DNA of 47,611 nt from Escherichia phage vB_EcoS_swi2, in sequence record NC_054649.1; one strand, written 5' to 3'. This document shows, one piece after another, positions 11,877-18,970 of the stretch; position 1 is the stretch's first letter; each line of letters starts with the position of its first letter. The notes beneath the pieces were generated by a model that ran no database searches, was not told where the DNA came from, and was given only the letters and a program-made list of their open reading frames with translations. The position numbers and the translations under genes are program-made.

Positions 11877-12344
11877 GTATTTCAGATAGTTTTCGTGAGC
11901 GACTTTGCGGACTTTTTAGAAACTGATCACAAAGATAAATGCAAACGAAGAAATGTATCTGGCCGTAGCTTAACAGCTAAACACAAGTGAGGTATTCCAG
12001 TTCCTCATCAACGAATCTTGCGCACTGGCCCGGTGTGATTAATAATGGGCACACAACGGAAAGAGCATTACTGGTGACGGAGACTAGCGATTAGCTATAT
12101 GCGAAAGTTCTAGAAGCCAAGGCGGTTCGACTCCGCAAGTGCTCTTTCCGGTGTGGTGAATGCGCAGGCTGATGCGCGCAGGAGAGCTTCGGAAGAACAA
12201 GGTGCCTGTATACAAGCCGGAGATCAGCACCGGCCACCACAATACTTAACATCCAGCATTATCGCAATCATATGTAGGGGTATGTATGGGTTACGGGGCT
12301 GGATGTTAAGAAAGCACGCTGGCAATGCTTAAACCAGCACTTAT

Positions 12345-12421
12345 GGACGCGTAGCTTAATTGGTTAAAGCAACCGACTCATAATCGGCTGATTGAAGGTT
12401 CAAATCCGTCCGTGTCCACCA
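12345..12421 (+). tRNA. tRNA-Met (anticodon CAT; could alternatively be Ile2-type)
   Basis: Acceptor GGACGCG pairs with CGTGTCC, D-stem GCTT/AAGC, anticodon loop CTCATAA, T-loop TTCAAAT, 3-prime CCA encoded; terminator follows. Confidence 0.75.
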
Positions 12422-15107: not shown

Positions 15108-15548
15108 TTATAGATTTGAATCAGCGAAAAAACAATGGCGACCACGCCAAGAATAATGTCCAATTTCGCCGCCCCATTTAAAAGTGATGGAAAGGATGAA
15201 CAGATGGGTGCCGATAATAATAAATGCGTACTGCGCATGAAGCGGCGTTTCTACAGGCGTGATAAATTCCCATACGAATGACTCTATCGCTACCAGCCAT
15301 TCGTAAAGGCTCATCGTCAGCACGCAGAGAGCCATCTTTGTACTTTTGCGCAGTGCAATAGCCTGGAACAACCAGACCATAGACTGCGCAAGGTAATACA
15401 GATATTCGGCGGGAAATGAATCAACAAGCACCCATCCAAGATACACAGACATCACCATTGCCGGAATGAACACCAGAAACGCAACCATGCCCGTACAGGC
15501 GAAACCCAGCACATACATGATCATGATGGCAACGTCTGCGCCGAACAT
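15108..15548 (-). CDS. Integral membrane protein
   Basis: 146 aa with multiple hydrophobic helices. Confidence 0.4.
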   Translation of the reverse strand: MFGADVAIMIMYVLGFACTGMVAFLVFIPAMVMSVYLGWVLVDSFPAEYLYYLAQSMVWLFQAIALRKSTKMALCVLTMSLYEWLVAIESFVWEFITPVETPLHAQYAFIIIGTHLFILSITFKWGGEIGHYSWRGRHCFFADSNL

Positions 15549-15667
15549 TATTTCTTACCGCGCGATGGTGAGCTGGTGGAACCGTTTGGCTTCACTGCGC
15601 CAGTTTTGCCGCCAGTTTTAGTATTGCCAGTAGCGCGTGAACGAGACGGCGAATTGGTTGAACCCAT
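15549..15667 (-). CDS. Small basic Gly/Ser/Thr-rich protein
   Basis: 39 aa ORF (MGSTNSPSRSRATGNTKTGGKTGAVKPNGSTSSPSRGKK) with AGGAG RBS 5 nt upstream; stop overlaps next start (TAATG); not in ORF track because under 60 aa. Confidence 0.35.
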
Positions 15668-15713
15668 GTTTAAATCTCCTGTTGTTTGATTAGCATGATT
15701 TTAGCATATTACT

Positions 15714-15742
15714 GTTGACGTAGATTTGTGTGGAGTTTATAG
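15714..15742 (+). promoter_or_regulatory. Sigma70-type promoter TTGACG-N17-TATAGT
   Basis: TTGACGTAGATT then -10 TATAGT 15737-15742; second copy of GTGACGTAGAAAC motif just downstream. Confidence 0.55.
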
Positions 15743-15784
15743 TTAGTGACGTAGAAACAACAATAAATGTTAGAGGTGAGTGAT

Positions 15785-16093
15785 ATGAAAGATGAATTTA
15801 AAGGCACAAAAGGTCAGTGGACCAATCATTCTTTATTTACTGGTGAAGCGCGTACATCAATTTGGTCTGGTGATATTTATGTAGCAGAAGTAATGAGTGT
15901 TAGGGAGTCAGAATCGGTGAAGAAGGCTAACTCAAATATTATCGCTGCAGCGCCAGAATTACTCGAAGCACTTCGCCAGCTTCGCGATTATGTTGAGGAT
16001 GTTTGCGCAGTATCGTCTGATGATTGCCATGAGGAACACCCATTAAATCTGGCAAACAAAGCAATCAAGAAAGCATTAGGAAAGAAGCAATGA
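15785..16093 (+). CDS. Hypothetical protein, paralog of 28232..28525
   Basis: Shares EFKGT-G-W N-terminus and IAA-P-LL-AL-QL central motif with 28232..28525; GAGGTGA RBS. Confidence 0.5.
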   Translation: MKDEFKGTKGQWTNHSLFTGEARTSIWSGDIYVAEVMSVRESESVKKANSNIIAAAPELLEALRQLRDYVEDVCAVSSDDCHEEHPLNLANKAIKKALGKKQ

Positions 16094-16899
16094 AAACACT
16101 AAGCAAAATCTATTCAGACAAAGAAACGCGCAACGGTATCGCAGTCAACAAAACCTACCTCGTGCCAGTGGAGCAAATCTATCTGGAGCCGGGATACAAC
16201 ATCCGTGAAGCAGATGAGCAGCACGTTGAATATTTCGCACAGTGCTGGGAATCAGGTCAGCCACTGCCAGCATTAACAGTTATTCCTGACGAGAAGGGGA
16301 TACGCATTCTTGATGGTCAGCATCGCTATCTCGGCGCATTGCGTGCCATTGAGCGTGGCGCACCAATCGCTCGTATTGAGTGCAAGGATTTCACTGGCGA
16401 TGAGGCGGACAAAATTGCCTTCATGGTGTCATCCAGTCAGGGTAAGCAGCTTGACCCGTTTGAACGCGCAAAGGCTTACACACGACTGAAAGGCTTTGGC
16501 TGGACTAACGAGGAAATCGCCAAGAAGGTAGGTCGCTCAGTATCTGACGTGCAAATGCACCTGTCGCTGGGTGATGTTCCGGCCGAAGTAAAAGCACGCA
16601 TCAGTGCAGGACAAATCAGCTATGCAAACGCCGTAGCGGTAACGCGTGAGCATGGCGACGATGCGGTTAAAGTCATCGACGAGGCAGTAGAAGAAGCCAA
16701 AGCACAAGGTAAGGACAAGGTCACAGCGAAGGTGCTGAAGTCGAAAAAGATTAAGCCAGTAGACCGCCTGATTGAGCTGTTGAAGCAAGCAGATCACGTG
16801 ATTCTCCCTGCTGGTCATTTTGTGGCAGAGGATGAGGAATTTATCCAGATTCCTGTTGCTGATATTCACGAGGTCATGGCAATTCTGGAGAAGATGTGA
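16090..16899 (+). CDS. ParB-like N-terminal domain protein with HTH
   Basis: ILDGQHRYLGA motif (ParB/sulfiredoxin-type) and HTH-like WTNEEIAKKVGRSVSDV; ATGA overlap with upstream gene. Confidence 0.65.
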   Translation: MKTLSKIYSDKETRNGIAVNKTYLVPVEQIYLEPGYNIREADEQHVEYFAQCWESGQPLPALTVIPDEKGIRILDGQHRYLGALRAIERGAPIARIECKDFTGDEADKIAFMVSSSQGKQLDPFERAKAYTRLKGFGWTNEEIAKKVGRSVSDVQMHLSLGDVPAEVKARISAGQISYANAVAVTREHGDDAVKVIDEAVEEAKAQGKDKVTAKVLKSKKIKPVDRLIELLKQADHVILPAGHFVAEDEEFIQIPVADIHEVMAILEKM

Positions 16900-17102
16900 T
16901 GAATGAGCATGATGATAAATTAATTGCAGGATGGGGCGACCCATTACTGGCTAAGAAAGTTCACTATTTCCGTGATGGGAAGATTATCAGTGAATGTGGA
17001 AAGTGGATGTTTGGCGGTGAAAGAGAAGATATATCAGCATGGAAGCATGACGCAATATGCAAACAGTGTCTCAAGAAGTACGAGAAGATGGAGAAAATGT
17101 GA
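16896..17102 (+). CDS. Small Cys-containing hypothetical protein
   Basis: 68 aa ORF with C-x17-C-x2-C spacing, overlapping stops. Confidence 0.35.
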   Translation: MMNEHDDKLIAGWGDPLLAKKVHYFRDGKIISECGKWMFGGEREDISAWKHDAICKQCLKKYEKMEKM

Positions 17103-17353
17103 TGAGCAAGTATGAAAAACTTGATTCGATGATTATGGATATTCTTGATTTCAAAATTCCGACGCCATTCATGGCAATTCATTTTTCTGATGGCATCCAT
17201 AGTGGCATATACGCAGAGTGTGAAAAGCTGGCAACAAAACCACATGAGGGATTTCGAGTCCTTGATCGCCGACTTCAGGCGTTGCGAAAGAAAGGTCTCA
17301 TCTTATCGCATGGAGCAAGTAAAGGATGGGTGAAGATAAATCATGAACGCTGA
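17102..17353 (+). CDS. Hypothetical protein
   Basis: ATG overlapping upstream stop. Confidence 0.35.
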   Translation: MSKYEKLDSMIMDILDFKIPTPFMAIHFSDGIHSGIYAECEKLATKPHEGFRVLDRRLQALRKKGLILSHGASKGWVKINHER

Positions 17354-17516
17354 ACAATTCATCGAAAAACAACTTCGCGCCAAGCTGCCTGACATCGACC
17401 AGATGGCAATTGATGCGGCGATTCAGTACTACAAGCGCAATCAGAGCGCTAAGAAGGGCGGCATTTTTGAAGAATGCCTGAAGGTTGCAAAACAGCACAT
17501 GATTAAGGTGAAGTGA
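17343..17516 (+). CDS. Small hypothetical protein
   Basis: 57 aa ORF not in track; stop overlaps start of next gene. Confidence 0.3.
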   Translation: MNAEQFIEKQLRAKLPDIDQMAIDAAIQYYKRNQSAKKGGIFEECLKVAKQHMIKVK

Positions 17517-18052
17517 TGAAACTAAAAATCAGCAAATTATTACTTGAATCAGCATTAATCTTTCAGGCGCGCAATGATGTGCGATATTACCTGAATGGAA
17601 TCTGCTTTATGCCTGATGGTCGCATTGCCTCAACTGACGGTCATCGTGCGTTTATTGGTGGAAACCATGATAATAATCTGACAGAAAATGTGATTATCAA
17701 GATTGGCAAGTCACCAACAAAGCGTTATGAGCACGCCATCATTGATACAAAGTCGAAAATTGCAACGTATCATAATGAAGCTGGCGTGATGGTTGGCGCT
17801 GGTATCTGCGAAGAGATTGATGGTCGATTCCCTGACATTGACCGCGTGATACCAAAAGAAACAAAAGCAGCAGATGAAATTGGCTTCAATGCTGGCTATC
17901 TGGTTGATATCGAGAAAGCTGCGAAGCTGTTTAATCCTAAATTCTGTGGCGTCAAATTTGAACTGAAGGGAAATACAAATGCCGCAGTTTGCTGCCTTAG
18001 CGCGCCATCTGGCGAGACTGCGAAGATTGTTGTTATGCCGATGCGCCTGTAG
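17516..18052 (+). CDS. Truncated DNA polymerase III beta sliding clamp (DnaN) homolog
   Basis: 178 aa; NDVRYYLNGICF...TDGHRAF, DGRFPDIDRVIPK and C-terminal IVVMPMRL match E. coli DnaN domain II, the II-III linker and the extreme C-terminus; domain I is absent. Confidence 0.75.
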   Translation: MKLKISKLLLESALIFQARNDVRYYLNGICFMPDGRIASTDGHRAFIGGNHDNNLTENVIIKIGKSPTKRYEHAIIDTKSKIATYHNEAGVMVGAGICEEIDGRFPDIDRVIPKETKAADEIGFNAGYLVDIEKAAKLFNPKFCGVKFELKGNTNAAVCCLSAPSGETAKIVVMPMRL

Positions 18053-18056
18053 CAAT

Positions 18057-18085
18057 AAAAGCCCCTTTACGGGGCTTTTCTTTTA
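18057..18085. terminator. Bidirectional terminator hairpin
   Basis: aaaagcccc ttta cggggctttt plus T-run, between convergent genes. Confidence 0.6.
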
Positions 18086-18934
18086 TCACGCCAGATAAGT
18101 ATCATCCTCAAACCACGAGACATACGCATTGATATTCTGCACCGCAGTATCCAGTGATGTTATGCGAAGCAGATATGTGGTATTTGGTGCCATGATTATT
18201 TGCTCACCCAATCGAGCCTGCGAGTTACCCTGCCCCTGATTCGATGCATTCCCTTCGCTATACGTTGCTGCAACTGTCAGCTGTCCAATGTTTGTCACTG
18301 TAGAGCCAGTCAGCAGCTGTGCCGTAGCTGCCTGAGGCGTTATGTCGTTGGGATTATTAATCTCCGCAGCAGTACCGCCAGCGGCAACCGCGCCACGATA
18401 GATTGATGCTACGACACCTTTCCCTGTGTAACCAATAATCCGCTGGTTAAATATCACCTGTTTTGTTCCGGTGATAAAAACGCTGTCAAGGTTTGAGCCG
18501 CCAGCAACATCAGTCACCCTGCGCGATGCAGTAAACAGCTTGCCTTGCTTATTGGCGCGCTCAATATATGACTGTGTGGTAATGTCGCTTAACGCCACAT
18601 CAGGCTGAAGGTTTACTACCGATTGAGGAGACACGCCAGCGCGCCACACCGAAACGCGCAGCGAACTTACTGCTGCTGGCAATTCCGTTTTGATTATCTT
18701 CAGGCGCAGCGCTACGCCATAATAATTATTATTGTTGACGTCAATCCAGTAGTTGCCAGATTCAAATGGCGACACTTTCACTGATACGGTGCCACTGACA
18801 AGTGGTGTGTATGCGCCAGATGAATTAATCGGCATCACGTTAACCTGTAGTGCCGTCCAGTCAGCAGACATCAGCTCATCAAGTATCACCTCGCCATCTT
18901 CGCGCGTGGTGAATATGTCGTATCTTACAGCCAT
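18086..18934 (-). CDS. Hypothetical structural protein (capsid- or neck-associated)
   Basis: About 282 aa from first ATG (track ORF begins at alternative TTG 18946); downstream of major capsid gene. Confidence 0.4.
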   Translation of the reverse strand: MAVRYDIFTTREDGEVILDELMSADWTALQVNVMPINSSGAYTPLVSGTVSVKVSPFESGNYWIDVNNNNYYGVALRLKIIKTELPAAVSSLRVSVWRAGVSPQSVVNLQPDVALSDITTQSYIERANKQGKLFTASRRVTDVAGGSNLDSVFITGTKQVIFNQRIIGYTGKGVVASIYRGAVAAGGTAAEINNPNDITPQAATAQLLTGSTVTNIGQLTVAATYSEGNASNQGQGNSQARLGEQIIMAPNTTYLLRITSLDTAVQNINAYVSWFEDDTYLA

Positions 18935-18943
18935 AGAAACCCC

Positions 18944-18970
18944 CAATAAAAAACCCGCATTGTGCGGGTT
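18944..18970 (-). terminator. Minus-strand terminator/attenuator hairpin
   Basis: aacccgca / tgcgggtt stem followed on minus strand by TTTTATT. Confidence 0.45.

Follow-up and report, generated by a model that had tools for sequence, protein, structure and literature searches.

Organization of the island

The window analyzed here is the whole 47,611-nucleotide (nt) sequence of Escherichia phage vB_EcoS_swi2 (NC_054649.1), a Skatevirus-type siphophage. We focused on an island of six plus-strand genes (g1 to g6) inserted among minus-strand virion genes, and in particular on g2, which encodes an orphan ParB/KorB-like protein, and on g6, which encodes a short relative of the sliding clamp DnaN (beta) that we refer to as the mini-clamp. 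The module is ~91% identical to that of Shigella phage Sf11 and also ~91% identical to a cluster of roughly 200 siphophages of Salmonella, Escherichia and Klebsiella (45-49 kb). According to the BASEL authors, the cluster containing the Sf11-like siphophages corresponds to Skatevirus and its relatives (PMC11990801). Positions 15785-18052 are filled by six open reading frames (ORFs), all of which match a PHROG family:

15785-16093, plus strand: g1, 102-residue protein of phrog_1273, in a variable slot upstream of the ParB-like gene
16090-16899, plus strand: g2, orphan ParB/KorB-like protein of 269 residues (phrog_1033, E 7e-91)
16899-17102, plus strand: g3, 67-residue protein of phrog_2358, variable cargo, with three cysteines including a CxxC
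17102-17353, plus strand: g4, basic 83-residue protein of phrog_7185, variable cargo
17343-17516, plus strand: g5, basic 57-residue protein of phrog_4439, semi-core, immediately upstream of the mini-clamp gene
17516-18052, plus strand: g6, mini-clamp of 178 residues with DnaN homology

Minus-strand genes flank the island on both sides. In Sf11 and ST1UNAM, the annotations place head-tail adaptor or HK97-gp10-like neck genes on the left and, on the right, genes for a conserved 286-residue protein, the capsid and a decoration protein, all of them on the minus strand. Neighboring genes are tightly packed: g1 and g2 have an ATGA in common, the g2/g3, g3/g4 and g5/g6 junctions each consist of a common TGATG, and g4 and g5 overlap by 11 nt. 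The ORFs, their PHROG matches, the junctions and the annotation of the flanks confirm the initial annotation of this locus, which described six overlapping plus-strand genes between minus-strand neck and capsid genes. The initial annotation also mentioned small cysteine proteins in the plural; this holds for g3, which alone is cysteine-rich for its size. We placed the start of g1 at the ATG at 15785, which is preceded by the Shine-Dalgarno sequence GAGGTGA (the mechanical ORF begins at 15767), and the resulting protein is 56% identical to gp32 of Sf11. No sequence relatives of g1, g3, g4 and g5 were found in PDB and none of g1 in Pfam; more generally, searches of Pfam, PHROG, NCBIfam and PDB returned no informative relatives for the cargo genes g1, g3 and g4. 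No Rfam family was matched on either strand between 15000 and 18600.

The mini-clamp retains the clamp-binding-motif pocket

The product of g6 matches the E. coli-type beta clamps (phmmer search of PDB, E 8e-14). A structural model built with AlphaFold2 from a shallow alignment of close homologues reached a predicted local distance difference test (pLDDT) score of 42, and we used instead a diverse alignment of 88 sequences, which yielded a pLDDT of 95.8 and a predicted template modeling score of 0.90. The structural neighbors of this model are clamps throughout. Two segments of E. coli beta align with the protein: residues 136-250, which cover domain II and the linker DGRFPDYRRVLPK, and residues 313-366 (second half of domain III). 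Compared to DnaN, which contains 366 residues in three domains, the 178-residue g6 thus comprises domain II, from which the second helix is missing, the linker between domains II and III, and the C-terminal half of domain III; domain I and the N-terminal half of domain III are absent. In the model, one inner helix of the expected three is lacking. The C-terminus of the protein, VVMPMRL, is identical to that of E. coli beta.

Residues 1-130 and ~251-312 of beta have no counterpart in g6. The residues that stabilize the beta dimer are I78, F106, I272 and L273 (PMC11139829), and all four fall in segments that are absent from g6. Because domain I and the half of domain III that bears I272 and L273 are absent, g6 cannot form the DnaN ring. 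We then examined the pocket that accommodates clamp-binding motifs, defined as 18 residues in subsites I and II (list from PMC11139829). Sixteen of these 18 residues are identical between g6 and E. coli beta, and 7-16 of the 18 are retained across ~17 lineages. Moreover, 11 of the 18 pocket positions rank among the 25 most conserved of the 178 columns of the 88-sequence alignment (P = 8e-7, Fisher test; P = 9e-7, Mann-Whitney test). Judging from these alignments, g6 has evidently lost the ring-forming parts of the clamp and retained its clamp-binding-motif pocket.

The protein does not reach the thresholds of the DnaN models: it scores 36.3 bits against TIGR00663 (cut-off 137.65) and 16.4 and 13.6 bits against the Pfam clamp domains, of the set PF00712, PF02767 and PF02768 (cut-off 27). 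It shares with DnaN the clamp fold, a detectable homology and the pocket, but it stands outside the DnaN family by domain content, interface and score, and belongs to a phage-encoded family of its own. This family contains 808 clusters at 90% identity. Among 1.8 billion representatives, we found 1970 relatives of the mini-clamp, 181 of them at E<1e-10, and nearly all the non-fragments among 150 listed relatives are ~170-210 residues long. The proteins are mildly basic, with a median isoelectric point (pI) of 8.5 and 63 of 88 sequences above 7.5. The hundreds of clusters, the constant length and the conserved motifs led us to reject the possibility that g6 is a decayed DnaN pseudogene. The last gene had been initially annotated as a DnaN fragment: the homology is real, and the protein, complete in length, belongs to a conserved family.

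We also rejected the label "RusA-like Holliday junction resolvase" (phrog_3007 and RefSeq), as no RusA match (PF05866) was found in Pfam or NCBIfam and all the matches are clamps. This erroneous label is being propagated for the mini-clamp family in PHROGs and in many RefSeq phage records. The gene has drawn the attention of annotators since Bcep781, in which it is labeled "DNA Pol III b subunit fragment". Our literature search found no functional or structural study on a phage mini-clamp, a DnaN-like phage protein or a Jerseyvirus clamp.

The ParB-like protein

The second gene of the island encodes a protein with an N-terminal ParB/Srx fold, a central ParB helix-turn-helix (HTH) and a C-terminal region of ~65 residues. 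The DGQHR motif, a P-motif of the GxxR type, lies at residues 75-79, and g2 exceeds the Pfam cut-offs for HTH_ParB (PF17762; 44.1 bits, cut-off 22.6) and for KorB (PF08535; 27.9 bits, cut-off 22.3), in agreement with the initial description of a ParB-like protein with DGQHR and an HTH. The best match in PDB is Spo0J (1vz0, E 1.5e-12), and KorB (8qa8) is matched at E 0.0023. Other models were matched below their cut-offs: TIGR00180 (ParB/Spo0J; 37 bits, cut-off 58.45), the NCBIfam ParB and Noc models, and TIGR03187 (DGQHR/DndB; 16.5 bits, cut-off 58.85), for which the alignment is limited to the motif region. No match to PF02195 (ParBc) was found at E<=0.1.

When aligned to Spo0J and to the ParB of M. 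xanthus, the GQHR of g2 falls on GERR, which indicates that the GxxR of Box II is kept, and the family-conserved SSQGK falls on the ENLQR of Box III, which is lost. Residues G76, H78 and R79 are invariant across 36 homologues, and the whole protein is 97-99% identical across close relatives. It has been reported that GxxR is the minimal nucleotide-binding signature, that orphan ParBs often lack Box III, and that the nucleotide bound by proteins of the ParB-CTPase fold cannot be predicted from sequence or AlphaFold3 (PMC12704722). As GxxR is retained but Box III is replaced, neither CTP binding nor nuclease activity can be inferred for g2.

Several features separate g2 from partition proteins. 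The ParA-binding motif LG[KR]GL is not present in its N-terminus, no parA is annotated in Sf11 or was seen among the window ORFs scanned, and a palindrome scan of 15500-18200 revealed no close-armed (parS-like) palindrome besides the terminator. These results indicate that g2 is most probably an orphan ParB-CTPase-fold protein and not a partition protein.

Promoter, terminator and shared boxes

The island is bounded by its own transcription signals, as initially annotated, and a 9-nt element found at its promoter recurs elsewhere in the window:

15690-15755, plus strand: promoter/operator region (consensus scan and comparison with four relatives)
15690-15709, plus strand: direct repeats TTAGCATGA/TTAGCATAT, within the promoter/operator region
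15715-15720 (-35) and 15738-15743 (-10), plus strand: sigma-70-like promoter TTGACG-17-TATAGT (consensus scan)
15716-15724 and 15747-15755, plus strand: two TGACGTAGA boxes, which flank the promoter
18054-18082 (hairpin 18057-18079), both strands: two-way intrinsic terminator hairpin AAAAGCCCC-TTTAC-GGGGCTTTT, with a 9-bp GC-rich stem
10352, 15716, 15747, 24729, 24754, 27739, 27768, no strand assigned: TGAYGTAGA sites (9-mer scan of the window)
33594, 33689, 38260, 38277, 41954, 44981, 44991, no strand assigned: remaining TGAYGTAGA sites (same scan)

Neither the promoter consensus (3 sites vs 5.4 expected in 2.9 kb) nor the terminator consensus is found above chance by count. The support for both elements comes from comparison. 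Both hexamers and both TGACGTAGA boxes are invariant in four relatives, in which the spacer is variable, and the annotation of ASO78B places a promoter at the corresponding spot. The terminator hairpin is preceded by an A-run and followed by a T-run within a 33-nt convergent gap. In ASO78B, the pairing of the stem is preserved by compensatory changes (CCCGC/GCGGG) and terminators are annotated on both strands. The island uses this terminator jointly with the minus-strand gene at 18086-18946, which encodes the conserved 286-residue protein (phrog_5335, no Pfam match) and lies between the island and the capsid genes.

The sequence TGAYGTAGA is present in 14 copies in the window, relative to 0.63 expected, and none of 100 shuffles reached 14. 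Sf11 contains 12 copies at positions matching those of the window. Every copy is intergenic and occupies a promoter-like gap that precedes a non-structural island or an early operon, and the copies often form direct or inverted pairs separated by 1-31 bp. TGAYGTAGA has the appearance of a promoter/operator element used throughout the phage. The common boxes imply that the island is one of at least seven transcription units with a shared extended -35/operator element, which fits a coordinated expression by the host polymerase that would be separate from late virion expression.

The island is a variable hot-spot

We compared the island to 67 related loci of IMG/VR, anchored on g2. The gene g5 was found in 61 of these loci and the mini-clamp in 46, and the other genes are rare: g1-like genes occur in 6, g4 in 4 and g3 in 2. 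The plus-strand ORFs of these loci form 57 clusters, and the length of the island varies from 1.6 to 4.8 kb in the 21 loci in which we located the anchor genes of both flanks. The island is an accessory hot-spot with exchangeable cargo, represented by g1, g3 and g4 in the window. In relatives, the gene directly 3' of the ParB-like gene, with an overlapping stop/start, may be a C5-methylase (PF00145), an N6/N4-methylase (PF01555) or a methylase-EndoVII fusion, and the slot upstream of the ParB-like gene may hold phrog_14587 ("anti-restriction protein") or an EaC-like gene.

A 27-nt sequence (TGGAGAARATGTGATGA...) is found twice, at the junction of g2 with g3 and at that of g3 with g4. Its two copies, TGGAGAAGATGTGATGAATGAGCATGA at 16886-16912 and TGGAGAAAATGTGATGAGCAAGTATGA at 17089-17115, are 81% identical, and the proteins encoded by g2 and g3, the genes that precede them, both end in ...EKM. 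This repeat may represent a junction for the swapping of gene cassettes.

Outside the island, ARAGORN detected a tRNA-Met (CAT) at 12345-12421, overlapped by a doubtful "tmRNA" (region 12047-12421). Sf11 possesses a tRNA-Ser and a tRNA-Arg at the corresponding place, which indicates that the tRNA cargo differs among relatives.

Distribution of the mini-clamp and ParB-like genes

The mini-clamp was found in 301 phage records and is rare on plasmids (15 records). In the virion operons of Dhillonvirus rolling, Jerseyvirus SE1, Kagunavirus Shashou, Burkholderia phage Bcep781 and Shewanella phage 1/41, it is an inverted gene that stands alone or nearly so. This antisense placement recurs in five unrelated groups, among which the spot within the head/neck/tail operon differs. 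In phage rolling, the sole companion of the mini-clamp in the inverted island is gp40, an Nmad5 (nucleotide modification associated domain 5) protein (PF18757, E 7e-56).

In other phages, the mini-clamp is associated with replication or recombination genes. The replication/recombination module of Serratia phage Eta contains a single-stranded DNA-binding protein (SSB), a ParB-like protein, the mini-clamp and a helicase, and the gene is found with RdgC and SSB in Xanthomonas phage Rb1 and in a replication or recombination module in Pantoea phage LIET2. In the lambdoid Hafnia phage yong1, the mini-clamp lies between cII and O/P-like replication genes, and Morganella lambdoid prophages carry a homologue of g2 in the slot between these same types of genes. 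In Sortsne, the mini-clamp lies between Dam and Dcm. This Dam, whose gene immediately precedes that of the mini-clamp, ends in QAEMIF, a sequence compatible with the hexameric clamp-binding motif and comparable to QVEMEF of RecB; it is a single case and is not significant.

In four separate lineages, a gene of the g2 family precedes the mini-clamp by no more than 2 kb: the cluster of the window, the metagenomic phage L008, in which the two genes overlap, Serratia phage Eta and Pseudomonas phage zjk6. Because the g2 family is present in just 324 of 50,697 phage records, this pairing in four lineages is very unlikely to have arisen by chance. The ParB-like and mini-clamp genes are linked, and they are not obligate partners. 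In L008, a PAPS-reductase-family protein (PF01507; 8632-9876) is encoded 1.3 kb downstream of the pair; this association of a ParB-like protein with a PAPS reductase presumably resembles the IbrA/IbrB-type pairing. The gene g5 was found in 145 phage records, of which the 25 sampled were all in or near the Skatevirus and Klebsiella-phage cluster.

Comparison with known systems

The closest functional analogue of the mini-clamp is the engineered monomeric beta (I272A/L273A), and the half-clamps of herpesviruses are more remote analogues. Like g6, UL42 and UL44 adopt the clamp fold; they hold a polymerase peptide in the equivalent pocket and do not encircle DNA. E. coli itself reportedly produces a short beta, beta*, from an internal start of dnaN upon UV induction (1996 papers of the Livneh laboratory). 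Like g6, beta* is said to start near the boundary of domains I and II and to lack domain I. However, beta* reportedly retains domains II and III in full and acts as a clamp, whereas half of domain III and one helix are missing from g6.

Other phage proteins act in the sliding-clamp network. The T4 clamp gp45 acts in late transcription. The Twort protein gp168 (PDB 7evp), which inhibits the host clamp, resembles g6 as a phage protein acting in this network, and MuC of phage Mu illustrates the use of the host clamp by a phage (PMC12867686). These proteins bind the host or phage clamp, whereas g6 is a phage-made copy of the binding site of the clamp.

As for g2, it resembles KorB of RK2 and HerB/YfjB of conjugative plasmids in presenting a ParB N-domain with GxxR and a ParB-type HTH without a ParA partner, and in being carried by a mobile element and expressed from a promoter of early type. 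KorB and HerB act by regulating transcription or by reprogramming the host. In contrast to these orphan ParBs, g2 has a conserved SSQGK in place of the Box III ENLQR, and its P-motif DGQHR is as in DndB-type proteins. Unlike for KorB, no KorA-like partner or operator was identified for g2, and no partner search was made.

A pocket mimic as a tentative model

We propose that the island is an early accessory island whose mini-clamp would be a non-ring pocket mimic that binds host proteins with clamp-binding motifs. We hold this model tentatively and regard it as slightly short of probable. The host sigma-70 RNA polymerase would transcribe this early-type island, inserted antisense in the late virion operon. 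Its conserved core consists of g2, which would be a DNA-binding protein with a nucleoside triphosphate (NTP) switch, of g5 and of the mini-clamp. Soluble or tethered to DNA, the mini-clamp would capture host proteins through their clamp-binding motif, the candidates being the clamp loader's delta subunit, the alpha and epsilon subunits of DNA polymerase III (Pol III), Hda, the translesion polymerases, MutS/L and RecB. The captured proteins might be pulled off the host clamp or brought to the phage DNA, possibly with the joint action of the ParB-like protein.

This model is supported by the pattern of deleted and kept segments in g6, by its replication-linked neighborhoods and by the finding that delta is bound ~50 times more tightly by a monomeric beta variant, which does not support processive synthesis, than by the dimer (PMC11139829). 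RecB was included among the possible targets because it uses the beta-clamp pocket (PMC13254535). The replication-type genes of the window and Sf11 encode two primase-type proteins, a helicase, a Sak4-like AAA_24 protein, a PDDEXK DUF3799 protein and HNH endonucleases, and we detected no DNA polymerase in the window, nor is one annotated in Sf11, suggesting that replication presumably relies on the host Pol III. Given this dependence, blanket inhibition is a less attractive explanation than recruitment or selective diversion. Clamp-binding motifs are not enriched among the proteins of the phage itself (3 matches vs 3.6 expected), which points to host targets. The match found in g2 is inside the recognition helix of the HTH and is not conserved, and no clamp-binding motif was found in the cargo methylases, the phage replication proteins or the SE1 polymerase.

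Several observations weigh against this model. The pocket is also the most conserved part of DnaN generally, and its conservation in the mini-clamp could be partly inherited. By trapping Pol III or delta, a mimic would be detrimental as well to a phage dependent on the host Pol III. Jerseyvirus SE1 encodes a Pol I-type polymerase of its own in addition to the mini-clamp, so that one common target is not obvious; because of SE1, we also rejected the mini-clamp as a marker of phages that lack a polymerase of their own. Furthermore, the mini-clamp is absent from 21 of the 67 related loci, including a sub-clade of Klebsiella phages, and is therefore dispensable, and many phages carry the ParB-like gene or the mini-clamp without the other. 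The mildly basic character of the family would also fit a DNA-binding tether. Finally, the early timing is presumed from the type of promoter.

Alternative explanations

The cargo found in relatives raises the possibility of an anti-restriction or DNA-modification island, in which the ParB-like protein would be the loading or activating partner of DNA-modifying enzymes, as in a split ParB-methylase fusion, and the operon would protect phage DNA from host nucleases. Three unrelated methylases follow the ParB-like gene directly in relatives, where phrog_14587 may stand upstream, and the mini-clamp lies between Dam and Dcm in Sortsne and adjoins the Nmad5 protein in rolling. In addition, phages are enriched in ParB-fold/methylase fusions (PMC12704722), and a thymine dioxygenase is activated by a phage ParB (PMC13229309). 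However, that phage ParB has no obvious DNA-binding domain (PMC13229309), whereas g2 possesses an HTH and a C-terminal domain. The searches of Pfam, PHROG and NCBIfam revealed no methylase or other modification enzyme in the window copy, the ParB-like protein is 97-99% conserved with or without a methylase behind it, and the cargo methylases lack the clamp-binding motif. The BASEL Skatevirus phages with the island, including the methylase carrier Bas78, were moreover reported to be markedly sensitive to restriction-modification systems, and the former also to Old (PMC11990801), which weakens the anti-restriction reading. We consider this explanation unlikely. An explanation of similarly low probability is that g2 is a KorB-like global regulator, i.e., the transcription factor of a TGAYGTAGA regulon comprising its own operon and other non-structural islands, the mini-clamp being unrelated cargo. 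The matches of g2 to Pfam KorB and HTH_ParB agree with this, as do the 14 sites of TGAYGTAGA (0.63 expected) at promoter regions, two of which flank the island promoter. On RK2, many promoters are silenced by KorB, a sliding clamp that depends on NTP (PMC11790492), and the orphan ParB-like HerB reprograms transcription. But TGAYGTAGA is non-palindromic, unlike parS or the KorB operator, and its overlap with the -35 hexamer suggests that it may only be an extended promoter element. The ParB-like protein of L008 is 54% identical to g2 with a near-identical recognition helix, yet no TGAYGTAGA is present in its 12.8 kb, and Sf11 encodes other candidate regulators (a CI-like repressor and a winged-helix protein).

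The mini-clamp could alternatively be a true processivity factor that tethers a polymerase to DNA, either as a UL42-like monomeric half-clamp or as a new oligomeric ring in which four copies of three half-domains would supply the twelve of the beta dimer. The clamp fold with an intact polymerase-binding pocket, the location of the gene in replication modules and the mildly basic pI of the family would all be compatible with such a role; E. coli beta is acidic. Against it, one of three inner helices is absent from the model, the monomeric beta does not support processivity (PMC11139829), the gene is lost in 21 of the 67 relatives, and it is found in phages both with and without their own polymerase. 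We regard this role as rather improbable. Even less probable, in our view, is a composite, loader-independent platform: a dimer of the ParB-like protein would form an NTP-gated sliding clamp on phage DNA, and a docked mini-clamp would offer a beta-type pocket recruiting the host Pol III or other proteins with a clamp-binding motif without the host clamp or loader, the phages with a single one of the two genes using the host counterpart. Finally, the two proteins could help a carrier-state or plasmid-like phage genome to partition or to replicate with its host. This possibility comes from Serratia phage Eta, which has the ParB-like/mini-clamp pair, no integrase and unstable lysogens, and for which plasmid-type maintenance through the ParB homologue was suggested by its authors (PMC3918226). 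The lack of a ParA gene, of the LG[KR]GL motif and of a parS-like palindrome in the module, together with the presence of g2- and g6-type proteins in integrating lambdoid prophages, makes episome maintenance very unlikely.

Implications

The opposite strand, the own promoter and terminator and the homologies to proteins of DNA metabolism support the initial view that these are not morphogenesis genes. The further suggestion of a host-takeover or anti-defense module stands in part: the island is an accessory hot-spot with methylase and anti-restriction cargo in relatives, but the window copy contains no recognizable anti-defense gene. The replication and recombination modules in which its genes are found elsewhere point to an interaction with the replisome or the clamp network more than to classical anti-defense. 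Host proteins of replication or repair are the probable targets of the island, rather than the building of the virion.

The pocket of the beta clamp is a hub of bacterial replication and repair and, as recently recognized, of RecBCD, and it is also an antibiotic target. If our model is correct, a widespread phage family copying this pocket without the ring would constitute a new viral route into the host replisome, and the mini-clamp would be a natural compact reagent to trap clamp-binding proteins. The recurrent pairing with orphan ParB-fold proteins provides a functional lead for the uncharacterized proteins of the ParB-CTPase fold on mobile elements, and the hot-spot can be mined for candidate anti-defense genes, among them g1, g3, g4 and many others.

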